DNA of 64,000 nt from a virus (Duplodnaviria; Caudoviricetes), in IMG/VR virus record IMGVR_UViG_3300014641_000001, positions 60,266-124,265 of that record; one strand, given 5' to 3'. How positions within the stretch are numbered: position 1 is the stretch's first letter; each line of letters opens with the position of its first letter. Below, piece after piece: positions 2,634 through 57,625 of the stretch. A program made the position numbers and the translations under genes. The notes below the pieces were generated by a model. That model was not told the DNA's origin. It saw only the letters and a program-made list of their open reading frames with translations, and searched no databases.

Positions 2634-2681
2634 TCTCTCATTGAAAACCATCTTTCATTGATCCTTTCTATCTATCGCCAA

Positions 2682-3383
2682 TCAATATTGGCTAACAGGT
2701 CGCTTTCTGACCTCTTCATTAATAGAATCTACTACTTGTTGTACATCTTTATTTCCATCTACAACGAAATCAACTTCGTCCTTTATTCCTAAGAACATTC
2801 CAAAGTCTCTTTCAACTCTTGAGCATATTTCGTTTTTATCGTCGAATGTAAACTTATCAATTCCACATCTCTTTATGTAACGAATTACTCTGTTTCCAAG
2901 GTTAGTATCAATATATATCGTAAATAAGTTCTTCGAAGTATCAAGGCTTCTGTTTAATTGACGTATTCCATTAGGTGTAAGTACCACCACTCTGTTTCCA
3001 CTCATATATTCGCTTTTTGGTGTACCGTAGAATCTATTTTGAGAATATTCTTCATATTCAGCGAAAAAACCCTCATCTAATAGCTTCTTAAACTCATCAT
3101 TTGATATAAACCAGTAATCTTCACCATTAACCTCATTTTCTCTTTTGTTTCTTGTAGTATAAGAAATGATCTTTTTATATCCTAGTTTTGATACCAAATA
3201 ATCTTCGACCGTTGATTTCCCAGATCCAGAAGCGCCTATCAATATAATTGTATATGGATTATGATTTTTGTTCGTTGGAGTATAACGCTCACCACAAGCG
3301 CTGTTTTTGTCTATCCAACAATTGTTATCTATATGTATGCATCTCTGACAAATAATGCTACTTGGATTTCCCAATTTACTCAC
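2682..3383 (-). CDS. gmk: Guanylate kinase-like protein with short Cys-rich N-terminal extension
   Basis: GASGSGKS P-loop, SYTTR..RENEVNGEDYWF, FYGT. Confidence 0.85.
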   Translation of the reverse strand: MSKLGNPSSIICQRCIHIDNNCWIDKNSACGERYTPTNKNHNPYTIILIGASGSGKSTVEDYLVSKLGYKKIISYTTRNKRENEVNGEDYWFISNDEFKKLLDEGFFAEYEEYSQNRFYGTPKSEYMSGNRVVVLTPNGIRQLNRSLDTSKNLFTIYIDTNLGNRVIRYIKRCGIDKFTFDDKNEICSRVERDFGMFLGIKDEVDFVVDGNKDVQQVVDSINEEVRKRPVSQY

Positions 3384-3957
3384 CTCCCAATACTAATTCT
3401 CTAAACATCGGTAGCTCTTCAACCCATTTACAAAATGCTCTCCATTCAAGGAGTCGGTGATTTCTTCGCTGATAATACATAGTCTTCAACTGCTGATAAT
3501 TTGTAGTAAATCCAGCAGTTAACTCAAACCCGGAAGGAACGTTATATAGAATTGTCAAATATAATTCCATTGCAAACTCAGTCCCTTTGTCTTCCAACCC
3601 GTTATAGACATCAATCATTTCTTGAACTACATCAATTATTCTCTGATCTACATATTCATTACATTGATTTTTAAAAGCAAATTTTGTGATACGATGCATA
3701 GTTGACTGACTGGAAATAAAGTCTATGAAGTGGTACCTCTCTAGCTCCACGGACATCTTGTTTGAAAATCTCATATCAAACTGAACTACTATCCCCTTAA
3801 GGAAGTTATCATGACCTGTGCCTGATTTACATGATCCCAACTTTGTAGTTGTTTTCGTAACTTCTTTTGTACAGTCTTCTGCGTTTACTGCCATTGGCAA
3901 CTTACTTACTCTGATAGCATTTTCAAGACCATAAACATTTACATTGCTAATCTGCAT
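3376..3957 (-). CDS. ThyX-like conserved phage protein
   Basis: GHDNFLKGIVVQFD, ELERYH...SSQSTMHR, NY..L..MY.QR.NHRL.EW; resembles short phage ThyX-fold proteins. Confidence 0.55.
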   Translation of the reverse strand: MQISNVNVYGLENAIRVSKLPMAVNAEDCTKEVTKTTTKLGSCKSGTGHDNFLKGIVVQFDMRFSNKMSVELERYHFIDFISSQSTMHRITKFAFKNQCNEYVDQRIIDVVQEMIDVYNGLEDKGTEFAMELYLTILYNVPSGFELTAGFTTNYQQLKTMYYQRRNHRLLEWRAFCKWVEELPMFRELVLGGE

Positions 3958-3968
3958 TCATTCTCCTC

Positions 3969-4169
3969 CTATCTGTAGTATTTTAATTCTCCATTATCAT
4001 CAAAATTATCAATATTCAAGACGACGGTATTGCCGTCTCTCAAAAATACATTCTCTATTTTTCTGTCATTTCTATATGTGTCTGACCCAATTTTGCCAGC
4101 ACAAACCAAAGCCCTGGGATATTTTAATAATTCCATCGCTAAATCTTCAGCATAAATAATTCCTTTAAT
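3969..4169 (-). CDS. Hypothetical protein (66 aa, ATT start)
   Basis: Open frame after SD GGAGG; not in the ORF track. Confidence 0.55.
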   Translation of the reverse strand: MKGIIYAEDLAMELLKYPRALVCAGKIGSDTYRNDRKIENVFLRDGNTVVLNIDNFDDNGELKYYR

Positions 4170-4240
4170 ATTTTTTTGCCTCCTATATGTAATTGTAAAA
4201 TTGTTGGGATTTTTGTTGATATGATTTAAAACAATGCTTT

Positions 4241-4711
4241 TTAAAGGTTTAGTAATCGTATTGCCCTATCAACATTTTTCTGTTGAAGCCCTTTGTTGAA
4301 TGATGTTTGAACTAATCTGTCCATGAACGGCTTCATATCTGCATCATCATCTATAATAATAAATGACTCTACCGGTTCACCCTTCCAGTTATCAATCCAT
4401 GTTTTTATTTCTTCTCCACGATAGCCGCTTGAAAGTCTTGGAGTTCGTGAAAGGAATGTAATACCATACTCACTTAATTTATCTTCTAGTTTAGTGAAGT
4501 CCTCTGCATTTCTGCTATGTACATCATAATCTCGATCAAACCAACCGATACGCCACGTAGAAGATAGAACAACTTTTGCACCCGTGGCATCAATAATTTC
4601 TTTAAGTAGCTTAATACGATTATCGTTTACAAAATATAATCCTCCGATCTTATCTCGACAGCCATTAAAATTAAGCACTCCATCAATGTCCAAAAATACG
4701 ACCTTGATAAT
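4241..4711 (-). CDS. HAD-superfamily protein (Swiss-army-knife RNA-repair type)
   Basis: VVFLDIDGVLN, VLSSTWR, RGEEI..W, IIIDDD; frame extends to an ATT after GGAGGTG. Confidence 0.85.
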   Translation of the reverse strand: MIKVVFLDIDGVLNFNGCRDKIGGLYFVNDNRIKLLKEIIDATGAKVVLSSTWRIGWFDRDYDVHSRNAEDFTKLEDKLSEYGITFLSRTPRLSSGYRGEEIKTWIDNWKGEPVESFIIIDDDADMKPFMDRLVQTSFNKGLQQKNVDRAIRLLNL

Positions 4712-4744
4712 ATCACCTCCAATTATTCATTTGAAATTTCACTT

Positions 4745-5275
4745 TCATCTTGCCTTTATAGTGTCTGCATATGTCATTACACTATCATAAAAATCTGATA
4801 TACTATTGTAATCACCGGCATCAAATACCGGGATGTCATAAACTTTGGCAATCCTGATTGCCTTACCAGTTCCTCCACTACCTTTACCATTCTTAGTCCA
4901 ACATAACACGAAACTTGAAGGTGTTTTCAAGTCTTTTCCAAGAACCTGATGACTATTTCTTGCTTGTAATTTTCTCGCTCCTTCTTTAAGATTATGCCAA
5001 TAAGGATGATACTTTTGAGCTATGTCAAATGCTTCAATATTTTTCACTACCAAATCAGAGTTAGAACCATTAAATCCTATCCATGGTACATATATTTCTT
5101 TTTCACCATATACTCTATCACATCCCTGTTCAAAAGCTAGGTCAGCACCATCAGCGTGTCCCGATCTTAATATAAAATCGTATTTTGTATCCATCAATTC
5201 ACCGATGTCTCTGAACACACTAAGTACATTTTCTGGTGTTTCTCTTGAACCAATACCTGCATAATAAATATTCAA
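4745..5275 (-). CDS. SLOG/DprA-like nucleotide-binding protein
   Basis: YAGIGSRETP, LRSGHADGADLAFE, ARN..QVLG, GGTG.AIRIA. Confidence 0.75.
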   Translation of the reverse strand: MNIYYAGIGSRETPENVLSVFRDIGELMDTKYDFILRSGHADGADLAFEQGCDRVYGEKEIYVPWIGFNGSNSDLVVKNIEAFDIAQKYHPYWHNLKEGARKLQARNSHQVLGKDLKTPSSFVLCWTKNGKGSGGTGKAIRIAKVYDIPVFDAGDYNSISDFYDSVMTYADTIKAR

Positions 5276-5662: not shown

Positions 5663-5686
5663 TTAAACTCCTTTGAAAGTCCAGTT

Positions 5687-6031
5687 TTAACTTGTTTCCA
5701 TATTTTCCAATGCATATCCAAGTGCCTCAGAGAATCCACAACCACCATTATAAAAACTCACTACGTAATTAATTGTTCCGTCCGAGTTCAAGTTGGCGTG
5801 ATAAACATCATCTCCATCTAAGTCAACGTCTTTAATAATCTTATAAATATTGTTTTTATAAATAATAAATTTATTACGGTATTCGTCACAAAAACATTCC
5901 TCCCACGAATCATAATATGGCTTCATTTCTATCCCCTCTTTGTCGCAATATGATTTGCACCATGCCTCTACTGTTTGACAAATTGGAACTATTTTTAACA
6001 ACTTACCAACATGCGTTTCTGTCTGTGACAT
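5687..6031 (-). CDS. Hypothetical phage protein
   Basis: ORF with SD AGGAGG; bounded by junction palindromes. Confidence 0.7.
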   Translation of the reverse strand: MSQTETHVGKLLKIVPICQTVEAWCKSYCDKEGIEMKPYYDSWEECFCDEYRNKFIIYKNNIYKIIKDVDLDGDDVYHANLNSDGTINYVVSFYNGGCGFSEALGYALENMETS

Positions 6032-6504: not shown

Positions 6505-6530
6505 GCTAACTCTCCTTTAAAATCCCAAAT

Positions 6531-7109
6531 TCATTTATCAAATTTTACGTTGTTGAGAATCTGATATAATTCACGGATAACCTTGGCATCATATAAAGCG
6601 TTATGTTTATCTCCTTGAATCTTATCTTCTTTGTAATTTTGATATAAGATGTCTTCTCTGGATTTGTCAAAAGCTTCCTTTGAAGTTATTCCATATTTCC
6701 GAGCAATGTCCTGATTGATATCATAGCACGCAGCGCATACGTTCTTGGGAATATCAAATGCTCCACCAAATAAATCAATAAACAAAACCATGTCGTAGTG
6801 GCAAACATCTGAAACCAGCTCTACCGATTCAAATTGCTTTAACCAATTACGAAGCATCATAGCAACCTCTTGCTTTGTGCCAATTCTATATCCACTAATA
6901 TACTGTTCTTCTGATTCATCTTTTCTGCACACGAGATTGTTTATTACGTTATCAAGCAGAAATTTACTCTTATCTGCATAGACTTGCTTCCAATCGAAAT
7001 CTGACAATTCAGCATAGAAAGTCCGCCTATCTTCTGAAATTAATCCTATGCTCACAAGCGTTGTGCTCTTATGTAATCCAGTAAATTCTGTATCAAAAAA
7101 TATCTTCAT
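6531..7109 (-). CDS. DEDDh 3'-5' exonuclease (Rv2179c-like)
   Basis: IFFDTEFTGL...LVSIG...HNALYDA. Confidence 0.85.
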   Translation of the reverse strand: MKIFFDTEFTGLHKSTTLVSIGLISEDRRTFYAELSDFDWKQVYADKSKFLLDNVINNLVCRKDESEEQYISGYRIGTKQEVAMMLRNWLKQFESVELVSDVCHYDMVLFIDLFGGAFDIPKNVCAACYDINQDIARKYGITSKEAFDKSREDILYQNYKEDKIQGDKHNALYDAKVIRELYQILNNVKFDK

Positions 7110-7579: not shown

Positions 7580-7633
7580 ATTTTCTCCTATTCATGTTGT
7601 TTTTTACTATGAAACTTCCGTTTCAATTTTTAT

Positions 7634-8919: not shown

Positions 8920-8948
8920 ATCTCACTAACTTTGAATGGTTTGTTTCA

Positions 8949-9113
8949 TTACAGTTTTTCAATTGTAACTTTGTATTTATCTCCTACGCCTGTATCAGCT
9001 CCTAGTAGTTCATCTAGTGCTGTAACTACATCGGCAGAAAAACTATGTTCATCTGTATCAAAGAACCAATCATTAAAATCATGAACCACTGTACCAATTA
9101 CTTCTGTTTTCAT
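8949..9113 (-). CDS. Hypothetical acidic protein (54 aa)
   Basis: MKTEVIGTVVHDFNDWFF...; SD GGAGG; flanked by palindromes at 8932 and 9126; not in the track. Confidence 0.65.
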   Translation of the reverse strand: MKTEVIGTVVHDFNDWFFDTDEHSFSADVVTALDELLGADTGVGDKYKVTIEKL

Positions 9114-9139
9114 TTATTTCCTCCGATCAAAGTATTATT

Positions 9140-9373
9140 TCAATGTTCAATTGTATCTTCGCCGATAATATCAAAACACTCATTTAACCATTTAAATACA
9201 TTATTTAAGTTATATGAACTATACCCCACATTACACTCTTCCTTGTCAATACAATGATATTTGATCTCATAATATGGTTTTTCAGCAGTCCCATGAACAA
9301 CTATTTCAGCGCTTTTTACTTTTATTCTTACTTTTTCAACATCATTATTTTCTTTCATTGTCACATTGCTCAT
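9140..9373 (-). CDS. Hypothetical protein
   Basis: ORF with SD; stop lies inside a palindrome. Confidence 0.7.
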   Translation of the reverse strand: MSNVTMKENNDVEKVRIKVKSAEIVVHGTAEKPYYEIKYHCIDKEECNVGYSSYNLNNVFKWLNECFDIIGEDTIEH

Positions 9374-9426
9374 ACTGTCTTTTCCTTTCTATTATATTTT
9401 TGCTTTGAATCGTTACTTTCATGCGC

Positions 9427-9974: not shown

Positions 9975-9998
9975 CTATGAAACCTCTCTTTCAACTGA

Positions 9999-10568: not shown

Positions 10569-10605
10569 TTATACTCCTCCTACATTCTCCTTTGAAATCG
10601 TCATT

Positions 10606-10869
10606 TTAGTGCTTTTTGTAACTCCACATAAAGTAACCTTGTTCTCCAATTTGGTCACACATATCACAAGTATGAGGCACTTCTTTCTGTTGGTATTCAC
10701 AAGTTTTACAACCAATCGGAACTGCTTTAAATCCTAACATCCTTCCACTCTCGTACTTTATTCCAGTAATAAAATATTCTTTACTATCTATAAACACTGA
10801 TGCTTCTTGATTCTGTGTTACCCTTATCGGCTGTTTGCCTAATTTTTCCCAAATCTTTAAATATTTCAT
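10606..10869 (-). CDS. Hypothetical protein
   Basis: CxxC pairs; SD GGAGG. Confidence 0.65.
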   Translation of the reverse strand: MKYLKIWEKLGKQPIRVTQNQEASVFIDSKEYFITGIKYESGRMLGFKAVPIGCKTCEYQQKEVPHTCDMCDQIGEQGYFMWSYKKH

Positions 10870-10885
10870 GAATCCTCCAATAAAT

Positions 10886-11623
10886 TCATTCTTTCAACTG
10901 CTTATATGTAAATAACTTTTCAACTCTAATATTTTGTTTGTCGTCTTTATTCTTATTACTATCCAACAATGTTTTGACTTCCTTCTGCCAAATACATTCA
11001 AACTCATCTGGCATAGCATACTCGCTTATCAAAACAGTATTATATATGCTTGCAGCTTTTACCCAACTATAAAATTCCTCATACGGAAACCATTCGGTTT
11101 TATATTTTGTAGTACCTTTATATGGTATATCGCAGTAAATAACATATCCTTTTATTTTATCTAGCGGCAGATTTCTAAAATCACTGCATTTAAATCTAAT
11201 ACCTTTTAAATTTGGTATTTGTTTTAAAGTATTGACATATGCTTCTTTGGAATAATTTCTTTTGCCAATTTTATCTCGCCTATATCCACCAAACCACTTT
11301 CCACCATATGAGAGTTGAAACCCAACGTATCCAACTAAATAATCATTATATAAATCTTTATTATTTTGAATTGATTTATAATCGTCTTCTGAGATGTTTT
11401 CCGGAGGAAGCCAACCCCCTGATAGTTTATTAAGAACTGCGATTAGATAGTTGTGTACGTCACAACCAATTCTTTTTTCACATTTTATCTTATCAATCAT
11501 GTTCGCACCACCTACAAACGGCTCTAAGTATCCAATTGTATCATCAGTAATATAGGACTGTATAATGGGAGCCAATTCTTTGCTTAATCTATTTTTACTA
11601 CCTACATATTTCAATAACATCAC
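10886..11623 (-). CDS. DNA adenine methyltransferase (D12/Dam class)
   Basis: KYVGSK..L, YLEPFVGGA, YCDIPY (DPPY variant), ISEY, EKLF. Confidence 0.9.
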   Translation of the reverse strand: MMLLKYVGSKNRLSKELAPIIQSYITDDTIGYLEPFVGGANMIDKIKCEKRIGCDVHNYLIAVLNKLSGGWLPPENISEDDYKSIQNNKDLYNDYLVGYVGFQLSYGGKWFGGYRRDKIGKRNYSKEAYVNTLKQIPNLKGIRFKCSDFRNLPLDKIKGYVIYCDIPYKGTTKYKTEWFPYEEFYSWVKAASIYNTVLISEYAMPDEFECIWQKEVKTLLDSNKNKDDKQNIRVEKLFTYKQLKE

Positions 11624-12555: not shown

Positions 12556-12680
12556 TTATATTTTAGGGTACAGTACTGTTACCTCGCGAGAAACCACTAC
12601 CCTTTCTTCTATTTTCACATGTTGCAATCATGTTCTTATTAGTTTAATTCTCTTTTTAATAGGATGAATCTTTAAATTCA

Positions 12681-13199
12681 TCAATAAATATTATTTTCGT
12701 AGATTTGTACTAACTTATAAAAAGTCGTTCTTTTCAATTTAAGATCGTCCATGAACTTCTTAGCAGTAATTCCATTTCTTTTCCACTCCGTAAAATACTT
12801 TTCCCATCCTTCCGGAAACTCGGCTGAAGGTCTTCCGGTTGCATTACCCGTTTTAATTGATACCTTTTTCCCATCGACTAATGGCATAGCGTCTATTCCT
12901 CGCCTTTGATTTCTTTTTTTATATCCTTCGTAATCAATAATAGGGCTTCCTTTTTGTATGTACTTTTCTTTAAGTTCTGTTTCAACGAGATATGCTTCCT
13001 TTTCAGATAAGTCAGAAACAAGAATTTCAGAGCAAACGCTATGAGCATTGATTATTGCTCCAACATGATTACTCCTATTTTCGAAATTCTTATATCTGTC
13101 TCCACTTCCTTTTCCTATGTAAAAATAATCATTCCAATCATTATTGTAAAAAGCATAAACATAATACTTATTTTGATCCATAAATAAGGAGCTTTGCAA
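12681..13199 (-). CDS. GIY-YIG-like nuclease fused to a resolvase-type C-terminal HTH
   Basis: YYVY...FYIGKGSGDR...E; C-terminal QRRGI...GRP...LKRTTFYKL. Start uncertain. Confidence 0.65.
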   Translation of the reverse strand: MQSSLFMDQNKYYVYAFYNNDWNDYFYIGKGSGDRYKNFENRSNHVGAIINAHSVCSEILVSDLSEKEAYLVETELKEKYIQKGSPIIDYEGYKKRNQRRGIDAMPLVDGKKVSIKTGNATGRPSAEFPEGWEKYFTEWKRNGITAKKFMDDLKLKRTTFYKLVQIYENNIY

Positions 13200-13319
13200 A
13201 ATTGTGTCATGACGCTCATCTCCTTTCTAATTTTATGTATATTTATTAACCCAGTGTTCGCGATCACTAGATTCATAATTTACATTTCCGCATGAAAGCG
13301 GAGTTTCATTGCCAAATTG

Positions 13320-13982: not shown

Positions 13983-14008
13983 TTTTCTCCTTTCATGAAA
14001 CACAGATT

Positions 14009-14671
14009 CTATTGTAAAATTTTAAAGTCTACAAGTATCACTTCATGCTCACCGATAATATGACTTTTTATGTCTTCTAGTGTATATGGATATTTATTTC
14101 CAATTACAATGATATCATCTGAAATTTGATCTATATTTTCATGAGCGTCTGTTTCATAAACGCTTTTATGATAATCTCCATTCGCAATTATGGTTGACAA
14201 ATAAGATTTCCCAGCCACACTGTCACCAATGAAAACCCAGACTGGTCTTTTTTCTTTGTTTCTATTAATCTCTTTAAATAATTCCATGTTAACAGTAGCA
14301 CTTCCACCTGGGTAATAATAATCTCCTCCGTTACTATCTAATGAAAAGATGTTATTTTCTACATCATTAATTTCTTTTTCTCCTAAATCAATCAAGATAT
14401 CCAAATCAAAATATAAATCAGAAATTGGAACGTGAGTCACTCCTGCAAAACTACTAACCTTTTTTATGTATCCGTGTCCGAATGAGGCAGCACACCAACC
14501 ACTATAGCAATCTCCATATTCAGTCCATAACGTGATCTCATATTTACTTCCTTCATATTTACCATGTTCCACACAGTTAAGTATGTATAAGACATTATCA
14601 TCATAGTTATCTTCTCTGTCGTTATACGTAAGTTTTTTCTCTATCCTCATATACTTTACTTTTAAATTCAT
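14009..14671 (-). CDS. Hypothetical protein with C-terminal P-loop-like motif
   Basis: GDSVAGKS near the C-terminus. Confidence 0.7.
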   Translation of the reverse strand: MNLKVKYMRIEKKLTYNDREDNYDDNVLYILNCVEHGKYEGSKYEITLWTEYGDCYSGWCAASFGHGYIKKVSSFAGVTHVPISDLYFDLDILIDLGEKEINDVENNIFSLDSNGGDYYYPGGSATVNMELFKEINRNKEKRPVWVFIGDSVAGKSYLSTIIANGDYHKSVYETDAHENIDQISDDIIVIGNKYPYTLEDIKSHIIGEHEVILVDFKILQ

Positions 14672-14771
14672 AGCTTTCTCTCCTTTTCAATTTTTAGAAA
14701 CATGAACAGCAGGATTCGAACCTACCGTCCACATGAAACTCGTATTTCCTTGCTGTTTACTAATTCTCCGT

Positions 14772-37030: not shown

Positions 37031-37233
37031 TTTTCTTATTCCTCCTTTTCTAGCACAGGCAGCTCCTTGGGTTCAACAACTTCTTCCCATTCGGCATCGG
37101 CCACAACATTGTCATCAAAATCTTCCTCTGTATATCCATACTTTTCGTAGTCATGAAAAAATAAATCTCTACCGACCATCATTTATTTATTCTCCTTTGA
37201 AAGAACCATTTCAATCACCAACATTAAACAAAT

Positions 37234-37565: not shown

Positions 37566-38075
37566 CTATTCTCCGTCTTTTAATATTTTGCTTCTAAAAT
37601 CAGCATCTTTTAATAACTTTAAATAATACAGACAATCATCAAGTTCGTCTTCTGTAAAAGAATGTTTTCCATATCTATAATCTTCATTTATCCCAATTCG
37701 CATCATTACAGTACCATATGACGGACACATTCCGTAGCTACACCTAATACCTTGCCCAATAAATGAAGAGTAGTCTTTTATGCCTAAATACTCATCTTTT
37801 AGTATCTGAAATCCAGATATACAATCCTTAATTGACTCGGAAAGAGATATGGATGCGTCGCCATAAAAGTTTTTCTTTAAAGATTTTGTATATACAAATT
37901 TTCTAGCATTCTCAATTTTATCAAGATTATAGTTATTCATTATGATCTTTTGTTTCTGTAATAAATCAGCCTTTTTATTAGCCAATGTTTTAATGTTTTT
38001 TTCGTATTCTGATTTTAATCTTTCTTCTTCTTTGCGAAGTTCAGTTAATTTATTTTCAATTTCTAATAATTTCAT
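37566..38075 (-). CDS. Hypothetical protein
   Basis: Coiled-coil N-terminus; SD. Confidence 0.7.
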   Translation of the reverse strand: MKLLEIENKLTELRKEEERLKSEYEKNIKTLANKKADLLQKQKIIMNNYNLDKIENARKFVYTKSLKKNFYGDASISLSESIKDCISGFQILKDEYLGIKDYSSFIGQGIRCSYGMCPSYGTVMMRIGINEDYRYGKHSFTEDELDDCLYYLKLLKDADFRSKILKDGE

Positions 38076-38108
38076 AATTATATTCTCCTCTTTTCTCCCA
38101 TGAAAGGT

Positions 38109-38408
38109 TCATTTTAAAGTTAGTTGAAAATTCCCAATATCTATATTCTGAATCTGTTTTATTTTATCGTTGATCGCCTGATTCACACGTGAATCTATGA
38201 TCCTATCCACTTTATCAGTAGACGTTTTAATTGCCTCACAAACTTCTTTACCATTAACTATGTCGCCTTTTAGCTCTTTGACGAGTTTGTTTTTAACCTC
38301 ATTCTTGAACTGATCAATATTAAAAGAGTTTACAATTTCAGAAACCACCATATTTGTAATATGATCTGCGTCCCAGCCTTCTATTTTAAATGTGTAACTG
38401 CCATTCAT
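38109..38408 (-). CDS. Hypothetical protein
   Basis: ORF track. Confidence 0.65.
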   Translation of the reverse strand: MNGSYTFKIEGWDADHITNMVVSEIVNSFNIDQFKNEVKNKLVKELKGDIVNGKEVCEAIKTSTDKVDRIIDSRVNQAINDKIKQIQNIDIGNFQLTLK

Positions 38409-39087: not shown

Positions 39088-39224
39088 TTTCTTCTCCTCT
39101 TTCCCTTTGAATGATTTGTTTTATTTAAGTTTAAATCCTACGTTATCAGTGAAGGCAACCATGCCTTTTGCAATTAATTCATCATTAAGAATCAGCGTGG
39201 GGAGTTTGACCTCCCCATACCGTA

Positions 39225-47873: not shown

Positions 47874-48677
47874 TTACTTATCGTATATAAACGACATTCT
47901 CTGTTTTCCAGCTTCAATATTTTTCTTTTCTAAACAAGCGTATCTTTCTGTAATTCTTAAATCACTATGACCAAGCTGACTTGATACTTCCAATAATGCC
48001 TGGCTTTTATCTGGTGCATTTGCGATATATTGGTGTGCCATTGTTTTTCTAAGTCCATGAGTCCCTATCTTCTGCTTAAGGCCGGCTTCCCTTCGCCCGT
48101 CCTCCATTATTTTCCACCACTCCTTAGAACCAAGATATTCGCTCTTTTGACTTTTAAAGATATAATCATTAAGTTTTTGATCTGTATCATAGTTATTCAA
48201 CCAGGAGAGCCATTCAGACAATGCTATTTCAAAATCATTGTTCCAGGATAATTCAATATGTTTTGTTTTGATGATAATCCCATCTTCGTCTCTCTTAATT
48301 GTTTTTTCAGGCACATAATCAGCCGATGCCTTATATTCCCAATTCTTATCGAAAATGTCAGACCATTTAAGGGAACAAAAATCTCCACCTCGTAGCCCCA
48401 CATTAATAGCACAAACAAACATTGTAAGGTTCCTCCTTGCTATTTTCTCCTTTGACAAAGAGGAAGCATTTTCAATTCTGTCTTGGAATATCTTATATAT
48501 TGCAATGATATCATCACGTTCATATAAGCATTCCATTTTTGTAGACTCTCTTGTACCAACTTTTTGCTTAGAGCCGTAGCGCAAATCTGGTGTTCCATCA
48601 GTCTTCAAATGAGGATACTGGATCACATCTGCACTCTTATTTTCCATTATACAACGACTTTCCTGCATAGCTGACAT
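47874..48677 (-). CDS. Tyrosine recombinase/integrase (compact)
   Basis: Full catalytic set: GLRGGD (R), PEKT (K), HGLRKT (HxxR), LGHS (H), TERY (Y). Confidence 0.93.
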   Translation of the reverse strand: MSAMQESRCIMENKSADVIQYPHLKTDGTPDLRYGSKQKVGTRESTKMECLYERDDIIAIYKIFQDRIENASSLSKEKIARRNLTMFVCAINVGLRGGDFCSLKWSDIFDKNWEYKASADYVPEKTIKRDEDGIIIKTKHIELSWNNDFEIALSEWLSWLNNYDTDQKLNDYIFKSQKSEYLGSKEWWKIMEDGRREAGLKQKIGTHGLRKTMAHQYIANAPDKSQALLEVSSQLGHSDLRITERYACLEKKNIEAGKQRMSFIYDK

Positions 48678-48785
48678 ATTGACTACCTCCTTATATTCAT
48701 TGCCTTATAAGCACTATAAAAGGCACTGGATTATTATTCTCCAATGCCCTATGTACTCCCCATAAACTCATTTAAAAACCTAGTT

Positions 48786-49133
48786 TTATTCGTATAATAT
48801 TGATCCCAACTCGTCAACAATTTGTTCGTAAACCAGATATGCTCCATCTGAATCATAAGTGTCTTTTGATTTCTGTTCATATTGCTTTAGTAATTCTTCT
48901 ATCTGCTGACGATACCACTCAGGATTGTTTCTGTTTACCCCTGATTTTATAAGAGTTTTATCGCACAATATTTTTTCGTACTTGTTTTTATTTATTCTAT
49001 TTAGGGATTTTAAAACAGCGTTTGCTTCAACCTCATTAAATACCTTTGCAGAAGATATATCCCCATTAAAAACCGGAGTGCTGCCGATCCAGTTCACAAA
49101 ACACCTCTCATTGCTATCTTTAATTATGTACAT
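48786..49133 (-). CDS. Hypothetical protein
   Basis: ORF; start adjusted; stop lies in a palindrome. Confidence 0.65.
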   Translation of the reverse strand: MYIIKDSNERCFVNWIGSTPVFNGDISSAKVFNEVEANAVLKSLNRINKNKYEKILCDKTLIKSGVNRNNPEWYRQQIEELLKQYEQKSKDTYDSDGAYLVYEQIVDELGSILYE

Positions 49134-49158
49134 ATTATGCCCCTTCTCCATATGAACC

Positions 49159-49365
49159 TTAGATTTCATCAACCTTTTCAAAGTATTCGTTTGCCATCTT
49201 ACTATCAAAGTCACATATAGCCTTCCCATCATACATAATAGTAAGCGATCTATTCCAATCATCTAAATAACACGTGAGTCCTTTTTTAAGAATAGTATTT
49301 CCCTTATCATATTCCCATGTATCTTCTGTGTTCAGATCTTTAACAAGCCTATATCTTTCTTGCAC
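49159..49365 (-). CDS. Hypothetical protein
   Basis: ORF; GTG after SD. Confidence 0.6.
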   Translation of the reverse strand: MQERYRLVKDLNTEDTWEYDKGNTILKKGLTCYLDDWNRSLTIMYDGKAICDFDSKMANEYFEKVDEI

Positions 49366-49405
49366 TAAAACACTTCCTCTCCCAATCAAACTCAAATTTC
49401 ATCTA

Positions 49406-49678: not shown

Positions 49679-49940
49679 ATATGTACCTCCTTTTTAAATA
49701 AATCTATTATTTTAACTGACTTTCCACTTTAAATAATGTACGAACAACTCTATCCCAACTGTCTTCTATTTAACCACTCCACCCAATCATTTGTGTCACT
49801 TGGATATTTATCAGGGTTTTCTTTAACATCGTTAAGCAGAAGAGCCAGTCTTAATCTATCAAGACTCCCAGCTGCTTGTGCTTTATTATTGAACCTTCCA
49901 AACTGATCTTTCACTCTTTGCCCCCAATCAAATAATCATT

Positions 49941-50096
49941 TCAATTCAAAATTTCTTCTGGATTCACATCAATAAAAAATACATCTAAACTGATTTCACA
50001 CCCACAATTACCACATACGTCAGTATTTAATTCAGTTCCACAGTCTGGACATATTAACTTTATATTTTCTATTTCTATTTCAGGTTTCTTTTTCAT
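49941..50096 (-). CDS. Small Zn-ribbon protein (51 aa)
   Basis: CPDCG...CGNCG; SD GGAGG; flanked by palindromes; not in the track. Confidence 0.65.
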   Translation of the reverse strand: MKKKPEIEIENIKLICPDCGTELNTDVCGNCGCEISLDVFFIDVNPEEILN

Positions 50097-50130
50097 TATA
50101 TTACCTCCAATTTCAAATGAATCAATCCTT

Positions 50131-50373
50131 TTAATCTTCTGCCGGTCTTGGGAATCCTGACCAGTGTGTAACTTCTAATTCTTCACGTTTAGCCCTACCT
50201 TCCCATTCCCATCTCTTTATAATTTCTCCATCTACAGTCTCTTCACGCCATTTCATCACCATAGTTACTTTTCGATTCCAAGTATTACACCTTACTGATA
50301 CTAGATAATAAGTCCCACGTCCACTTAAATCCTTGGGCTCTTGCTCTAAAATGCTTATCCAATTCGCTTCCAT
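50131..50373 (-). CDS. DUF551-like phage protein
   Basis: WISI....P...VTHW..FP.P. Confidence 0.75.
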   Translation of the reverse strand: MEANWISILEQEPKDLSGRGTYYLVSVRCNTWNRKVTMVMKWREETVDGEIIKRWEWEGRAKREELEVTHWSGFPRPAED

Positions 50374-50798: not shown

Positions 50799-50884
50799 AT
50801 TATAATCTCCTTTATACTTTTTAATTTTAATTCCTTTATTTATTTTTCTATAGCTTCCATTATTTTACCTTATAAATTCCTGAT

Positions 50885-51082
50885 TTAATTTGTATTTTTA
50901 TTTAAGGCTAGTAAAGAAACTATCATGTTAATTATTTTTTGTTTGTAATCAGAAGATATCGACTCATCATCAATAAACGTATTCATCATAGTATTAAGTC
51001 CTGCTTTCGTTCCTTCTAAGCAAGCCTGTTTATATCTCACATCTAATTCTTCTATTCTATTTCTTATTGTGCTTGATTTCAT
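50885..51082 (-). CDS. Hypothetical protein
   Basis: ORF; start adjusted to the ATG after SD. Confidence 0.6.
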   Translation of the reverse strand: MKSSTIRNRIEELDVRYKQACLEGTKAGLNTMMNTFIDDESISSDYKQKIINMIVSLLALNKNTN

Positions 51083-51134
51083 CTCTCTTTCTCCTTTTCT
51101 ACTTGAATTTGTGGATTTAATGTGTTTCTGATAT

Positions 51135-51353: not shown

Positions 51354-51391
51354 GTATAATTCCCTCCAACCTTTTTAATAAAATCTTGTTT

Positions 51392-51901
51392 TTATTGATT
51401 TAAAAATTCCGTTTGTATATTATTTTCTTTTATCACTTGTGACAGCTTACACAACCCAAGCTGTGTATCTATATGATATGTCTCAACAAATCTCGGTTGT
51501 GTTTTATCATCAATAATGTTTTTGGCTTGTTCAATACATTTTTCAATTCCAAGAATTTGACTATTAGCTTCAAAAAATTCGTTTAATTCTTTTTTATAAA
51601 TTGGGTTTATCGATTGTGATTCAGGTGTTTCGTTTCCACAGTGTCCACCTGCTCTTATGTTTAAATCCTTATAGTCTTTATATAGCCTATTTGCATATTC
51701 AAGCGGCATTAATCCATTACATACCCAATACGTCCATGCCCTTGTAAACGTAAAACCATTCAATATCCCTATATATCTTGTTTTTACTTCCGTATGCATG
51801 TAACTTGGTAGTTTAAAAATAGGGATGTTTGCAATCTGTAATTCTTCTTTAACTTTTTGATCCGCATCTGGTTTATAATCATGTCTTGCTAAATTTTCCA
51901 T
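51392..51901 (-). CDS. Conserved hypothetical phage protein
   Basis: F.RAW.YW, R..GHCG, YHIDTQ.GL. Confidence 0.75.
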   Translation of the reverse strand: MENLARHDYKPDADQKVKEELQIANIPIFKLPSYMHTEVKTRYIGILNGFTFTRAWTYWVCNGLMPLEYANRLYKDYKDLNIRAGGHCGNETPESQSINPIYKKELNEFFEANSQILGIEKCIEQAKNIIDDKTQPRFVETYHIDTQLGLCKLSQVIKENNIQTEFLNQ

Positions 51902-52125
51902 ACATTCTCCTTTTCTGTTTGAAATATCTCTTCTATTGGTCACTTTATTTACAGCAAAGCTTTACTTTCTTTTTGATACATCATACCTTTTTTCTCACAG
52001 TATGAAACATATAAAAGATAAAGTAAATCAAACTCATACTTATGCAATAAATAATCATCATCATTTTGTGGATTATATTTTTCTTCAAACCATTTTTTGA
52101 ACGTCATTTTTAACCTCCTTTCAAA

Positions 52126-52308: not shown

Positions 52309-52336
52309 TTAAACCTCCTATGAAAGCACACTTCTA

Positions 52337-52492
52337 TTACTGTTTTAGCATTTTTACTGTCTCTTTTGCATATTCTACGGCTCCAAGAAGTTCTGTAGGT
52401 TTGCATTCAAGTTCTTTACCCTCCGTCAAATACTTTTGAAACTGTGTTAAAATATCAATTACTTCTTCTGGTTTAAATTTTTCATAGCTCAT
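52337..52492 (-). CDS. Hypothetical protein (51 aa)
   Basis: SD AGGAGG; not in the track. Confidence 0.6.
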   Translation of the reverse strand: MSYEKFKPEEVIDILTQFQKYLTEGKELECKPTELLGAVEYAKETVKMLKQ

Positions 52493-52710: not shown

Positions 52711-53216
52711 AGAAACACCTCCAATATTGAATCTACCGCTAATTATGTGCGGTTAGTGACATAAGCCAGATCAACCACTAATTCTCCTGTGGTAAGCAGC
52801 AATCACTTATTGACTGCCGGTAATGCCTTGTTTACCTTTGACAGCTACGGCTTTTATAATCTGTCACCAGATCACCGACAAGGCTATGTATTAAGATATA
52901 AGACTATGTAAAGCAAAAATCTCTGTGAAGTTATTAAATGTGTTTATGTATATGCCATTTGCAAACATCTCAATTTTTCCTTCCTTATTCTTTTGATAGT
53001 GAAATTTTACATTGCTCATTCTTAATATTCTCCTTTTGTTTGCATAAATAAAGCCATGCTTATAATTATCAATAAAGCTGCCAATGTCCAGTTTCCACAC
53101 CTATCAGACAGCATAAAGAGCGAAAAAATAGAAAGCATCGGCAAAATGCTTCCTAAGAGTTTGTAATATTTATTCAATTGTGCAGATATCATGTAATCCT
53201 CCTTAAAATGTGCTTT

Positions 53217-53486
53217 TCATTTATCCTCAAAACATTCCCACATATCAGTCTGACAACCATCACCGCCCAACATACAATTGTCCATAACAAGATGGAAACA
53301 TCGTTCACAAGGACTCTCTTCTGGATTGTTTAATAAAAATTCTGCTTCACGATCAAGACTCAAGACTTCATTTGCAACTAAATTTGCGGTCATTCTATTG
53401 CACCCGACCATTGACAGAATTCGATTTTCCATAATCGTCATTACATTATTTTTAGCATTTTTTAGTTCTTCTCTTGTTAATGCCAT
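53217..53486 (-). CDS. Hypothetical protein
   Basis: SD; flanked by palindromes. Confidence 0.7.
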   Translation of the reverse strand: MALTREELKNAKNNVMTIMENRILSMVGCNRMTANLVANEVLSLDREAEFLLNNPEESPCERCFHLVMDNCMLGGDGCQTDMWECFEDK

Positions 53487-53525
53487 TATAAATACCTCCT
53501 TAAAACCTGTTTTTCATATACTGTT

Positions 53526-53822
53526 TTATCTTCCTACAATTCTTTGTAGTCCGTTTCCCATAAAGAATGATACAAAGGTCTTTTCAAGTTCTTCCTCATT
53601 GTTTACAGTTATTACTTCACCCTTACCAGACACACAAATAATGCCGTTTTCTGTTCTTGTAGCTACAAGTTTAGTTCCGTGACCTTCTGACATCCACATT
53701 GTATCTGTTTCTTCTTCATATCCTCCCATTGGAAAGTATAATTGTCTGAATAATTTTGTTAATACTTCGCTCATTTTCATCCTCACTTTCTGCCTGTTTA
53801 GGCTATAAAATCTATTTTTCAT
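53526..53822 (-). CDS. Hypothetical protein
   Basis: ORF track. Confidence 0.6.
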   Translation of the reverse strand: MKNRFYSLNRQKVRMKMSEVLTKLFRQLYFPMGGYEEETDTMWMSEGHGTKLVATRTENGIICVSGKGEVITVNNEEELEKTFVSFFMGNGLQRIVGR

Positions 53823-54115: not shown

Positions 54116-54156
54116 TATTTATCCACCTCATTTTTTATTATGAAATTACAAATTCA

Positions 54157-54375
54157 TTAGTTCATTTTATTATCTAATCCTAATGGATAATAATGTCCAC
54201 TGCATGCCTCTCCCCATTTATACATGTGATATAAAGCATTTCTTGTTTCTTTTGATAAATCATCTACTTCACAGTTTAAAAATCTGTCACAAACTGATCT
54301 TAAACAATCTTCATATCTTTTTTCGTATTCTTGTGAGTCCTTACATTCATATCGTCCGTTTTTTATATTTCCCAT
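54157..54375 (-). CDS. Hypothetical protein
   Basis: ORF with SD; flanked by palindromes. Confidence 0.65.
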   Translation of the reverse strand: MGNIKNGRYECKDSQEYEKRYEDCLRSVCDRFLNCEVDDLSKETRNALYHMYKWGEACSGHYYPLGLDNKMN

Positions 54376-54413
54376 GTGTATTATTCTCCTTTCGTTTTAA
54401 TAAAACGTGCATT

Positions 54414-55157
54414 TTATGCTATCTTACTTTTATGTTTCTTCAGTTCTGTCTTGTTTAAGCTTCTAACAAGTTTGCTCCCATTGTTTTCTGCTCCAATAAG
54501 TAACCCTTCTGTGATCATTTCATCTATAATTTTTCCAATGTGTCGCATCGTCTGACCTTTTCCATAGTTTCCATTTTCATTAATACCAATACGCTTTAAT
54601 CCAAAACGATCAGATAAATTTACGCATATATCAAGCACATAATAAAACTTATTCGTTCTTGACGTACCGCAACTTTCAAATAGTGCCTTACGTATTTCTG
54701 TATTCTTTGTGTTCAAATATTTATCATATTCAGTATCAGAAACATCATAGACTGTTTCATATAAATCGACCCATCTAAGGTAAAAAGTGTTGTGTTTCTG
54801 TAAGGCTTCTGCAATTTGCTTTACTTCATTTTTTAACACTTCTCCACTAAAATCCTGTGGGTGTAAATATAGGTGCTGCATTCCTTTGCTTACTTCCATA
54901 CAACTTCCGTTGTTATATCCACTTTTAATATTCCAACCTAATAGCTCTAAAGCTGCATACACTTCATTATAGAAATTGTTTCTATCCTCTTCCGAAAAAC
55001 TGAAAGATGGATAACCAAAATTTTTAGCCTCAATTCTGAAATGTACATTTACATATTCATTGTCATAATCGTCGCCTGGGTTCCAATTATTTGTTAAAGT
55101 GTGGTCTGCGCCGTATTCGTTACCTGTTCCATTTTGATGATATTTAATTGTTTCCAT
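54414..55157 (-). CDS. Hypothetical protein
   Basis: 247-aa ORF; flanked by palindromes. Confidence 0.75.
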   Translation of the reverse strand: METIKYHQNGTGNEYGADHTLTNNWNPGDDYDNEYVNVHFRIEAKNFGYPSFSFSEEDRNNFYNEVYAALELLGWNIKSGYNNGSCMEVSKGMQHLYLHPQDFSGEVLKNEVKQIAEALQKHNTFYLRWVDLYETVYDVSDTEYDKYLNTKNTEIRKALFESCGTSRTNKFYYVLDICVNLSDRFGLKRIGINENGNYGKGQTMRHIGKIIDEMITEGLLIGAENNGSKLVRSLNKTELKKHKSKIA

Positions 55158-55207
55158 CTAATTCCCTCCATTTAATTAAAGACATGAAACTTACTTTTTA
55201 TCTGCTT

Positions 55208-56430: not shown

Positions 56431-56667
56431 TGTTATTTCCTCCATATGATTTATTTTATTATTTATTTCCACTATAAAAGCCACTAGAGTATTTTCTAAT
56501 GGCTTCAAACTGGAATCAGATTAGTTGGGTGTATTAGAAGTTACGGCCTCTCTACCGTAGTAGTTTGTCGCCCTGATACCGTTGCCCTATAGGATGCTGT
56601 CAGCATTGACTCTTTCTAATAATCGCTATATCGGTTCCCCTTTATGCCACCCAATTAAATAAGAATT

Positions 56668-56916
56668 TTATTCGCTCTCTATTTTTAAAAACTTATGAAA
56701 CTCGTCATAAGTAACATATAAGTAAGAAGCTGTTGAATAATCGAATTTTCTAAGCGTAGAAGCTTCTTTATTCATGTCAATAATGTAAGAAATATTCCCT
56801 CTGCTAAAATAGTGAATTCCATGAACTTCTGTATGCTTATATCCATTTACCCGATCGTTAACAACAAGTTTTCTTCTCCTTCCGTCCATGACCGGCTCAA
56901 AGGTAATTGTTTTCAT
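56668..56916 (-). CDS. Hypothetical protein
   Basis: ORF; stop lies in a palindrome. Confidence 0.65.
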   Translation of the reverse strand: MKTITFEPVMDGRRRKLVVNDRVNGYKHTEVHGIHYFSRGNISYIIDMNKEASTLRKFDYSTASYLYVTYDEFHKFLKIESE

Positions 56917-56941
56917 GTGCTATTCTTCCCTTTCTTAATGC

Positions 56942-57015
56942 TTACGGACTTGTGACCGCTTGACGTGTGTCAGGTGCATTAAAACGGCTATGTGAGAGCC
57001 GTTCCACTCTGCTAA
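56942..57015 (-). ncRNA. Twister ribozyme (circularly permuted, P5-type), putative
   Basis: Minus strand GCA-GAGUG-[AACGGCU/AGCCGUU]-U-UAAUGC-AC-[P3]-GCGGUCACAAGUCCG. Pseudoknots CAC/GUG and AC/GU are compatible with the twister consensus. Confidence 0.7.
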
Positions 57016-57224
57016 TACACAATAGGTGTGTAATGCGTTTCGTATACACCTACATAATACCTACAATGACCATATTTTTCATCATTGAAAAGTTCTCCAT
57101 TATGGAAGCATAAACGTAAACATTTTTCTGCATCTTTTTCGCTATTAAATACAAAACATTCGTCACTATCTCCAAGGGCTTCTCCGTAATCAAACCAACG
57201 ATATTTTCTATAAATTGTGTACAT
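57012..57224 (-). CDS. Hypothetical protein
   Basis: ORF with SD. Confidence 0.6.
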   Translation of the reverse strand: MYTIYRKYRWFDYGEALGDSDECFVFNSEKDAEKCLRLCFHNGELFNDEKYGHCRYYVGVYETHYTPIVY

Positions 57225-57254
57225 TTTATGTTACCTTCCTGTAAAATTCGGTTT

Positions 57255-57389
57255 TTATCTACTTTCAAGCTCTTTTAAGAATTCTTCACAATGATCAATA
57301 TCCTTTTTGTGGCTTCTTCCTGTTTCTTGTTCCATACCTTTCCAGTAAAGAATCATTTCTTCTACTTGCCTTTTTAACTTTTCCTTCAT
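57255..57389 (-). CDS. Hypothetical protein (44 aa)
   Basis: SD GGAGG; exactly bounded by palindromes at 57241 and 57405; not in the track. Confidence 0.6.
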   Translation of the reverse strand: MKEKLKRQVEEMILYWKGMEQETGRSHKKDIDHCEEFLKELESR

Positions 57390-57625
57390 GTTTAAAATCC
57401 TCCAATCAAATAATCGTTTTATAGGTTTTGCATTTTGTCGATTCTCTCGGATGTCTGTTTAATTTTATTTTCAATGGCTATAAACTTTCAACTAGTATCC
57501 AATCGTATCCATTTCCAAGTTCCCTACAGATATTTTCTCTTTTATCCTTCATTCTCTGTAAATCAGTTATCAAATAATCAACAGGTTTCATGCTTTTACC
57601 TCCCTATAAAATGGATATTTCTTTG

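Follow-up and report, generated by a model that had tools for sequence, protein, structure and literature searches.

The early arm of an SPbeta-like phage of gut clostridia carries an 18-bp palindrome at junction after junction between small co-oriented genes, which raises the question of what these copies do. The window, that is, the whole stretch of 64,000 nucleotides that was analysed, is the second half of a genome of 124,265 bp. In it we found 33 exact copies of WTRAAW-N6-WTTYAW, compared to 5.25 ± 2.3 expected from dinucleotide shuffles, none of which gave 33. When the spacing between the inverted arms was varied from N0 to N14, spacings other than N6 gave 1 to 8 matches, and everted or direct arrangements of the arms gave at most 15 each. 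The whole genome holds 39 copies, with only a chance-level 6 in its first 60 kb (the late arm). Junction zones, which make up 16% of the early arm, contain 29 of the 33 exact copies, and within these zones the N6 spacing gave 29 matches, N10 gave 7, and the others from N3 to N9 gave 0 to 2. The four exact copies at 17991, 37961, 39636, and 51103 look incidental or coding. When one mismatch was allowed, we found 63 junction sites occupying 55 of 99 junctions, over a background of about 15 to 19 at other spacings, so that real junction sites number roughly 45 to 50; about half of the junctions between small early genes of this phage contain the palindrome. In 11 of the 33 exact copies, the upstream gene has its stop codon within the left arm, and in 13 more this codon is no more than 30 nt upstream, while the next ribosome-binding site and start codon follow the palindrome at medians of 9 nt and 23 nt, respectively. 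The 6-bp centres of all 63 junction sites are different. These counts bear out the motif enrichment reported in the first-pass annotation, including its concentration at junctions, its estimate of about 5 chance hits in 64 kb, and its five quoted examples (4731, 7609, 13292, 37197, and 54400, all found as quoted); its total of about 55 copies was fair, and its 28 exact matches by eye were an undercount.

What is new here is the comparative result, namely, that position-specific centres are kept among relatives. Only about 15% of the early arm aligns by blastn with the complete genome of one relative, G008, with which the window shares 47 same-centre pairs, compared to 4.1 expected. Forty-two sites form a colinear same-centre chain between the two genomes, compared to at most 16 when centres were shuffled among sites, and for most of these 42 the DNA on both sides is unrelated, as are, usually, the proteins. 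Most slots between matched sites differ in length and contain proteins that have no BLASTP hit. The sites are listed here; none is assigned a strand, and a partner is a site with the same centre in the relative named.

2641..2658, junction palindrome, exact; G008 partner, downstream flank unrelated
4731..4748, junction palindrome, exact; stop codon of upstream gene in arm; partner not found
5673..5690, junction palindrome, exact; G008 colinear partner, both flanks unrelated
6517..6534, junction palindrome, exact; G008 colinear partner, both flanks unrelated
7609..7626, junction palindrome, exact; colinear partner in G008/L085
8678..8695, junction palindrome, exact; L084, L085, and L086 partners, flanks unrelated
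8932..8949, junction palindrome, exact; L084 to L086 and G008 partners
9126..9143, junction palindrome, one mismatch; G008/L085 colinear partner, flanks unrelated
9405..9422, junction palindrome, exact; L085, L086, and G008 partners
9977..9994, junction palindrome, exact, centre doubling as ribosome-binding site; L084 to L086 and G008 partners
10592..10609, junction palindrome, one mismatch; L086 partner, flanks unrelated
10880..10897, junction palindrome, exact; L084, L085, L102, and G008 partners
12664..12681, junction palindrome, exact; L084, L086, and L102 partners
13292..13309, junction palindrome, exact; counterpart in L084/L102 belongs to an inverted pair
13995..14012, junction palindrome, one mismatch; L084 and L102 partners, flanks unrelated
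14733..14750, junction palindrome, one mismatch; L085, L086, L100, L102, and G008 partners
17991..18008, exact match in the 3' end of a RecD-like helicase gene, probably incidental; kept with the gene in L084
33336..33353, junction palindrome, one mismatch; G008 colinear partner, flanks unrelated
33941..33958, junction palindrome, exact; arm holds stop codon; partner not found
34446..34463, junction palindrome, exact; G008 colinear partner
34717..34734, junction palindrome, exact; syntenic partner not found
34952..34969, junction palindrome, one mismatch; G008 colinear partner
36758..36775, junction palindrome, exact; G008 colinear partner
37197..37214, junction palindrome, exact; G008 colinear partner, one flank common and the other not
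37961..37978, exact match within the gene at 37566-38075, probably chance
38100..38117, junction palindrome, exact; L083 partner
39107..39124, junction palindrome, exact; L083 partner, order swapped relative to 38100
39636..39653, exact match made up of the final codons and stop codon of a 685-aa gene; kept with the gene in many relatives, so that coding constraint is inseparable from a role as a site
48772..48789, junction palindrome, exact, directly upstream of the recombinase gene; L083 and G008 partners
49152..49169, junction palindrome, one mismatch; G008 colinear partner, one flank common
49385..49402, junction palindrome, one mismatch; L083 and G008 partners, flanks unrelated
49698..49715, junction palindrome, exact; partner not found
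49927..49944, junction palindrome, one mismatch; L083 and G008 partners
50117..50134, junction palindrome, exact; L083 and G008 partners, centre identical, arms differing
50872..50889, junction palindrome, one mismatch; G008 colinear partner
51103..51120, palindrome, exact; G008 colinear partner; the rough gene caller found no stop nearby
51378..51395, junction palindrome, exact; L083 and G008 partners
51919..51936, junction palindrome, one mismatch; G008 colinear partner
52320..52337, junction palindrome, one mismatch; L083 and G008 partners
53203..53220, junction palindrome, exact; G008 colinear partner
53500..53517, junction palindrome, exact; G008 colinear partner
53805..53822, junction palindrome, exact; L083 and G008 partners
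54140..54157, junction palindrome, exact; L083 and G008 partners
54400..54417, junction palindrome, exact; L083 and G008 partners
55184..55201, junction palindrome, exact; L083 partner, flanks unrelated
57241..57258, junction palindrome, one mismatch; G008 colinear partner
57405..57422, junction palindrome, one mismatch; G008 colinear partner
57606..57623, junction palindrome, one mismatch; G008 colinear partner

The same pattern was seen against L083, L084, L086, and L102 (a Lacrimispora MAG prophage), and both 40-bp flanks were less than 60% identical in 42 of the 44 same-centre pairs between the window and L083 to L086. Among IMG/VR clades A and B and this genome, we found 169 same-centre pairs with unrelated DNA on both flanks, compared to about 5 expected. 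SPbeta and phi3T share 18 same-centre pairs, compared to 0.24 expected; all 18 are colinear, and both flanks are unrelated in 5 of them. The centre is conserved better than the arms: just about 25% of same-centre pairs have identical arms, compared to 8% of random pairs. Where one flank is common, the adjacent arm is identical in 86 to 89% of pairs and the far arm in 51 to 64%; where neither flank is common, the arms are identical in 15 to 19%. The arms partly travel with their flanks. Since each site keeps its own centre, in the same order, beside unrelated genes, the palindromes resemble fixed points of crossover at which phages swap genes.

The first-pass annotation had proposed asking whether gene gain and loss in relatives break within the N6 core. 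Homology between relatives often ends at the edge of a site or inside it. Of the one-sided breakpoints, about half fall on the outer edge of a site and not between its arms, which a strict model of cleavage at the centre does not predict, and many mosaic breakpoints lie away from the sites, inside genes or at a ribosome-binding site.

We also found that, in relatives, a segment of about 120 to 125 bp lies between two sites with reverse-complementary centres and occurs in both orientations. Its inversion, found in two diverged backgrounds, exchanges the inner arms exactly as expected of a crossover within the centre. A second lineage has a homologous pair with a different, still reverse-complementary centre; the two centres of the inverted pair covary between lineages. 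In L084 and L102, the counterpart of the 13292 site has a mate with the reverse-complementary centre at a distance of about 138 bp. Directly after the 13292 site in the window comes an inverted copy of its centre, and the two are predicted to form a hairpin of -7.8 kcal/mol. Known invertible DNA switches include fimS, acted on by FimB and FimE, and the shufflons acted on by Rci; as in these, relatives of the phage have, immediately 5' of a gene, a short segment that occurs in both orientations between inverted sites with matching centres. In contrast to them, there is one site pair only, present in relatives and absent from the window.

Inverted arms around a 6-bp overlap, together with a requirement for matching centres, are a hallmark of tyrosine recombinases, as in Xer/dif, heterospecific lox, and FRT, and matching centres appear to be required for exchange at the phage sites. 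On balance, we lean towards the view that these are heterospecific sites with tyrosine-recombinase geometry that would serve in-register cassette exchange between related phages. Further points against this view are that tyrosine recombinases usually have arms longer than 6 bp, that in SPbeta the symmetry continues only weakly into the flanks, and that the centres are conserved beyond neutral drift, which immediate fitness does not explain. The closest engineered likeness is recombinase-mediated cassette exchange with heterospecific lox or FRT sites (Cre and Flp), in which only same-spacer sites recombine, so that a segment between two different spacers is exchanged in register and not deleted. 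Those sites also have inverted arms around a short spacer but use 2 or 3 spacer variants, 13-bp arms, and an 8-bp spacer, whereas the phage counterpart would be a natural one, with arms of 6 bp and some 50 different centres.

The idea of recombination sites in the first-pass annotation is partly supported by the same-centre sites that stay colinear beside unrelated genes and by the one inversion, but its analogy to integrons fails: we found no attC-type hairpins, and a single attI/Pc platform is absent. Integron attC sites are imperfect hairpins of 57 to 141 bp that recombine in single-stranded form, and a single attI beside intI and Pc is where cassettes enter. The phage region resembles an integron in having small, co-oriented, apparently promoterless genes between repeated sites and a tyrosine recombinase in the element; its sites differ in being 18-bp duplex palindromes with weak folds and position-specific centres. 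Because all 63 junction centres differ, the shuffling or excision within one genome that had also been proposed is not favoured by the design, and the pattern fits an exchange that takes place in register from one related genome to another. On Acinetobacter plasmids, pdif (XerC/XerD) sites flank dif modules (Mindlin et al. 2019, PMC6449649). The likeness is that numerous short sites of recombinase type, each with a central region of 6 bp, occur in accessory regions and border discrete adaptive gene modules found in different replicons. As described there, pdif sites are 28 bp long with distinct XerC and XerD arms like those of host dif, unlike the symmetric 6-bp phage arms, and here the replicon is a phage in which each position has its own centre, colinear across relatives.

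The window encodes one candidate enzyme.

47874..48677, minus strand, Xer-like tyrosine recombinase of 267 aa (P0001), candidate enzyme; Pfam PF00589, 4.9e-16

Its catalytic R, HxxR, H, and Y align with those of XerA (5hxy), giving the full catalytic signature, and homologues are 88% identical in L083 and 44% identical at the syntenic place in G008. No orthologue of this family was detectable in SPbeta, although SPbeta has sites. Each phage examined encodes 2 or 3 proteins of the tyrosine-recombinase fold; in YomM, a Lys apparently replaces the second catalytic Arg, as read off the alignment. Candidates for the exchange enzyme would be P0001, a YomM-like late-arm protein, and a host Xer protein.

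A possible but rather unlikely alternative is that the sites mainly dock a dimeric phage DNA-binding protein that could silence the early arm globally or road-block it during lysogeny (as with stoperators or the dispersed P1 operators), or organise the chromosome, with recombination as a by-product. The arms are dyad symmetric, with half-site centres, judged from the sequence, 11 to 12 bp apart, or about one helical turn; the sites occur only in the early arm and in non-coding gaps; and arm sequence varies by lineage (TAAAA in SPbeta, TGAAA or TAAAA in this phage), as expected if it co-evolved with a phage protein. The stoperators of L5 gp71 in cluster A mycobacteriophages and the C1 operators of P1 are likewise dozens of short intergenic sites in temperate phages, but they are asymmetric, orientation-dependent protein-binding sites, all alike and without a position-specific centre, and they are not known to serve as mosaic joints. 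Docking leaves unexplained why each position has its own 6-bp centre, kept better than the arms and colinear between unrelated genes, and why the centres of the inverted pair covary. We found no promoter-like signal beside the sites, and a role as promoters was rejected. The SPbeta master repressor MrpR/YopR, which has the tyrosine-recombinase fold, binds only about ten sites of a different motif, the 15-bp SPBRE at about ten promoters (ten ChAP-seq peaks, not about 40; PMC10516654). SPBRE, too, is repeated between genes in this phage family, and the protein that binds it has a recombinase fold; when derived de novo from its promoters, it is A/T-rich and unrelated to the palindrome, which was rejected as an SPBRE operator.

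Also doubtful is the proposal that the sites are passive linkers, short conserved boundary patches at which unrelated genes are joined by phage annealing or recombination proteins, or by illegitimate recombination and subsequent selection, in either case with no dedicated site-specific enzyme. The phage does encode Sak4-like, RecJ-like, and RecD-like helicase proteins, and the breakpoints at site edges and away from sites fit this proposal. There is precedent in lambdoid boundary sequences and in the PeSLs of T4-type phages (PMC3945230; Arbiol et al. 2010, PMC2839356), the latter being units of a promoter plus a terminator whose copies recombine through their homology. As portrayed there, PeSLs are similarly repeated intergenic elements in hyperplastic regions of small non-essential genes, with modular shuffling between related phages; the phage sites differ in having neither promoter nor stable stem-loop and in having centres that all differ within a genome. 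Because the arms differ in the majority of same-centre pairs, identity often extends over just 6 to 10 bp, very short for annealing-based exchange, and passive linkers give no reason for palindromic arms, strict N6 spacing, or the inverted pair with its covarying centres and clean inversion.

A role in RNA, where the sites would form intercistronic hairpins that act in processing, stability, termination, or translational control, is very improbable: the sites do lie between stop codon and next ribosome-binding site on the transcribed strand, but the predicted hairpins (-0.5 to -5.5 kcal/mol) are mostly no better than shuffles, several minimum-energy folds leave the arms unused, the paired R/Y positions show no covariation (G-C 13, G-T 7, A-T 7, A-C 6), and terminator-like hits number 4, compared to 3.1 expected, so that both hairpin and terminator were rejected. 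The idea that base composition alone produces the pattern, through AT-rich junctions and their TGA or TAA stop codons, is suggested by the stop codon in the left arm of a third of copies but refuted by the spacing control, in which N6 alone is enriched in junction zones (29 versus 0 to 2) and everted and direct arrangements are not, and we regard it as next to impossible.

Under the reading that we prefer, heterospecific sites for cassette exchange, each double-stranded site would consist of two degenerate 6-bp arms and a 6-bp centre, unique to its junction, that acts as an address. We infer that exchange is site specific and enzymatic, with a tyrosine recombinase as the probable enzyme. In an encounter between two related phages, or of one phage with a resident prophage, exchange would occur only between sites with the same centre, and whole cassettes, each with its ribosome-binding site, one or more open reading frames, and stop, would be swapped in register, leaving gene order undisturbed.

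The window (60266 to 124265) is the second half of a virus record that consists of a single contig of 124,265 bp with 34% GC. In the window, the minus strand carries almost all genes from 1,700 to 58,600. We found genes for a YorL-type DNA polymerase, a RecJ-like exonuclease, a primase, a DnaB-like helicase, and a Sak4-like protein, as well as genes for a RecD-like helicase, an NAD-dependent ligase, and a 685-aa protein of phrog_1735. The polymerase gene matched only SPbeta-type phages (of Bacillus, Staphylococcus, and Enterococcus), at 60 to 80% identity, and the closest prophages were found in MAGs of a Lacrimispora sp. and of uncultured Eubacteriales, where the helicase is 94 to 96% identical. 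On the basis of these matches, the window is assigned to an SPbeta-like phage of Lachnospiraceae-type clostridia and represents its early/replication arm. The small-gene region at 48700 to 56500 gave no match when close relatives were sought in the phage collection.

Between two small early genes, this arm also contains a type-P5 twister ribozyme (56944 to 57013, minus strand; Rfam RF02684, 48.8 bits compared to a gathering score of 37.6). A tRNA-Gln (anticodon TTG) was called by ARAGORN at 45151 to 45222 on the minus strand and is absent from the Rfam output at the gathering threshold. On the same strand, a 720-aa ORF (42948 to 45110) joins a sigma-70 region-2-like N terminus (phrog_351 sigma factor) to a GmrSD_N nuclease-type domain, and this fusion ORF is followed by a methyltransferase-like gene (42152 to 42946).

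The 18-bp junction palindrome WTRAAW-N6-WTTYAW, which consists of two 6-bp arms around a 6-base center, is present in 33 copies in the window, compared to 5.25 ± 2.3 in shuffled sequences. This enrichment is limited to inverted arms at N6: other spacings give 1 to 8 matches, and no everted or direct arm arrangement gives more than 15. Only 6 copies are present in the 60 kb of the late arm of the genome. The first-pass annotation had placed the motif at gene junctions by eye, and this placement was borne out: junction zones make up 16% of the arm and hold 29 of the 33 exact copies, while the N3 to N9 spacings flanking N6 give 0 to 2 matches in the same zones. Its count of about 55 copies is fair: a site is present at 55 of 99 junctions when one mismatch is allowed, and after background subtraction, we estimate 45 to 50 real sites. 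Allowing one mismatch also produced an apparent signal at N5 (49 matches), an artifact that arises when N6 sites are read with a one-base shift. An upstream stop codon precedes the site, lying within the left arm in 11 cases, and the next ribosome-binding site follows at a median distance of 9 nt. The sites are scattered over three blocks of the 57-kb arm and lie to either side of the gene for P0001, a 267-aa Xer-like tyrosine recombinase (47874 to 48677, minus strand), and they have the two inverted arms around a 6-bp central region, at strictly N6 spacing, of an Xer/dif-type core site.

The same architecture is found in SPbeta with TAAAA arms, where there are 34 copies at N6 compared to 1.7 at other spacings and 48 copies with a degenerate pattern, and where the symmetry continues weakly into the flanks, reaching about 11 bp per arm. 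Among relatives fetched by their 685-aa gene, the motif is common to the two closest clades (A and B). We regard the palindrome architecture, as judged from these genomes, as a feature of the family. When more distant relatives (a ~40% GC group and a 35%-identity group) were searched de novo for spaced palindromes of other kinds, nothing clear emerged; one such distant genome, G010, has 7 copies of the motif compared to 2 in the control.

All 63 centers within this genome are distinct, which is not significant on that count alone. We then compared centers between phages, using "same-center pair" for sites in different phages with an identical 6-base center and "slot" for the stretch between neighboring sites. 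The complete relative G008, in which only about 15% of the arm can be aligned to the window by blastn, forms 47 same-center pairs with the window compared to 4.1 expected, and a partner was found there for 22 of the 29 exact junction sites. These pairs form a colinear chain 42 long, compared to at most 16 when centers were shuffled among sites, a control that keeps the number of same-center pairs by construction and tests colinearity only. Partners in different phages are identical at 6 of 6 center positions and differ in their arms, and the slots between matched sites mostly have different lengths and encode proteins without BLASTP similarity, with near-identical genes in a few. In an offset control, 6-mers upstream of the sites gave 0 to 5 matches, compared to 9 to 15 at the center.

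Order is kept in other relatives as well, with same-center partners in L083 for eleven consecutive window sites between 55184 and 41770, and in L084 to L086 and the Lacrimispora MAG prophage L102 for twelve window sites between 14733 and 7609. Across the two clades and this genome, we found 169 same-center pairs between different loci in which both 40-bp flanks are unrelated, compared to about 5 expected. A comparison of SPbeta with phi3T gave 18 same-center pairs (0.24 expected), all 18 of them colinear; both flanks are unrelated in 5 of these, and homology ends exactly at the site edge in 6 or 7. When the window was compared with the first 78 loci, shared centers were mostly noise or coding conservation, because these phages are too divergent or lack coverage of the regions.

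Just downstream of site 14733, at about 14700 to 14730 on the minus strand, lies a tRNA T-arm-like stretch, GGTTCGAATCC, which may be a tRNA fragment; no tRNA was called there. A 279-aa protein encoded at 11716 to 12555 (minus strand), with an N4/N6 DNA-methyltransferase motif recognized by eye, is 97.8% identical in G008. The G008 slots around this methyltransferase-like cassette are unrelated to those of the window, and such identity amid unrelated slots suggests that the cassette was recently transferred.

Arms are identical in about 25% of same-center pairs and in 8% of random pairs, so the center is the best-conserved part of the site. Pairs that share only the upstream flank have identical left arms in 86% of cases and identical right arms in 51%; for pairs that share only the downstream flank, the values are 64% (left) and 89% (right). 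Identical arms occur in 15 to 19% of pairs with neither flank in common. This dependence on the flanks indicates that about one-half of the joints lie between the two arms, with the others at the outer edge of the site. BLAST ends cluster 8 to 9 bp from site centers. Of 812 such ends, 7.9% are within 10 bp of sites, compared to 0.9% for random positions and 6.3% for all ORF stops, and because it is hardly enriched over ORF stops, this histogram is not decisive by itself. In locus L008, two complete sites lie 4 bp apart (19813 to 19852) where other relatives have several kilobases, which looks like an "empty" slot.

A pair of sites with mutually reverse-complementary centers encloses a segment of about 125 bp in clade A. 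This segment has one orientation in L006, L009, L010, L035, and L053 and the opposite orientation in L025 and L056, and the inner arms are swapped between orientations exactly as predicted for a crossover in the center. L084 and L102, which belong to the lineage of the window, have a homologous segment whose site pair (at 15492 and 15630 in L084) has a different yet still reverse-complementary center; the left site of this pair is the counterpart of window site 13292, and the window has the first part of the segment only, with no second site. Since reverse-complementary centers are kept in both lineages, the two centers covary, which argues, indirectly, that the identity of the centers matters. 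The segment was located at the following positions:

L009, 19532-19688: invertible segment, conserved, ~120 bp, structured, two covarying hairpins
L025, 18978-19134: same segment
L084, 15492-15647: same segment

The segment is just 5' of a cytosine-methyltransferase-like ORF, seems to contain the start of that ORF, and may be an on/off switch. No Rfam family matched the L084 copy.

P0001 has the catalytic R, HxxR, H, and Y residues and general similarity to PF00589 and XerA/XerH. Its identity is 88% to the L083 protein and 44% to the protein at the syntenic position in G008. We found no significant BLASTP similarity between P0001 and SPbeta YopP, YopR, or YomM, and YopP had no match among solved structures. 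Two further genes lie outside the window in the complete genome, G000:

G000:C1:56662-57195, minus strand: tyrosine-recombinase-fold gene
G000:C1:12380-12784, plus strand: tyrosine-recombinase-fold gene

Of these two genes, one encodes an integrase-like protein of about 390 to 405 aa (far end of the early arm) and the other a YomM-like protein of about 337 aa (late arm), which is also present in SPbeta and in the relatives sampled from both clades. Candidates for an enzyme that would act at the sites are P0001, the YomM-like protein, or a host Xer protein.

The inverted arms, strict 6-bp spacing, matching centers, and clean inversion are consistent with the overlap-region logic of tyrosine recombinases. 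Unique centers in one genome would prevent deletions, while the same centers in a relative would still permit in-register exchange, as is the case for heterospecific lox/FRT sites. A further-reaching interpretation, to which we give slightly less than even odds, is that SPbeta-like phages carry about 50 natural heterospecific sites genome-wide, each with its own 6-bp overlap conserved in distant relatives, at which a tyrosine recombinase could swap accessory cassettes in register between co-resident phages and flip a gene switch at one inverted pair.

It is unlikely that the site is instead a docking site for a dimeric regulator, and we place a similarly low probability on a passive linker used by phage annealing proteins; both account less well for the position-specific, covarying centers. 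Stoperators and other dispersed operators are many near-identical repressor-bound sites; the sites found here are also numerous and share their arms, but their centers are position specific and conserved. Integron attC sites are hairpin-folding, imperfect inverted repeats of 57 to 141 bp with R/L boxes, and in an integron platform, intI lies beside attI and a Pc promoter and the cassettes form an array that starts there. In contrast, the sites in the window are 18 bp long, have weak folds and WTRAAW/WTTYAW arms, and are found in three blocks flanking the recombinase gene, without enrichment of promoter-like matches, so the integron analogy of the first-pass annotation fails for lack of both attC-type hairpins and an attI/Pc platform. 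T4-type PeSL units each have a strong sigma-70-type promoter and a terminator stem-loop, whereas neither promoters nor terminators are enriched at our sites and folds are weak.

An RNA hairpin was rejected, as folds range from -0.5 to -5.5 kcal/mol and are mostly shuffle-like, and paired R/Y positions do not covary. At site 13292 (13286 to 13309), an inverted copy of the center directly follows the right arm, and the resulting hairpin (-7.8 kcal/mol) is the sole stable one among the sites tested. We also rejected a promoter (45 promoter-like matches compared to 57.6 in shuffles, with fixed flanking hexamers absent) and a terminator (4 matches compared to 3.1). SPBRE, the 15-bp sequence at promoters of SPbeta bound by the repressor MrpR (PMC10516654), was excluded, as the motif derived from ten MrpR-bound SPbeta promoters differs from the palindrome. 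A YonO promoter was excluded because YonO has a single start for the entire late operon.

We found no description of address-bearing junction sites in the searchable literature. The joints of phage mosaics are usually explained by rare recombination events, either illegitimate or homologous but relaxed, with selection acting afterward. In the phages compared here, a defined site marks the joints, and its six central bases behave like a position label common to distant relatives. Many of the accessory genes that would be exchanged are likely to be host-takeover or anti-defense genes. The same type of site occurs in SPbeta and phi3T of Bacillus subtilis, two genetically tractable phages in which the proposed exchange is directly testable. 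If it is true, these phages would have a built-in equivalent of recombinase-mediated cassette exchange and a natural toolbox of orthogonal recombination sites, allowing dedicated exchange of accessory genes with gene order unscrambled.
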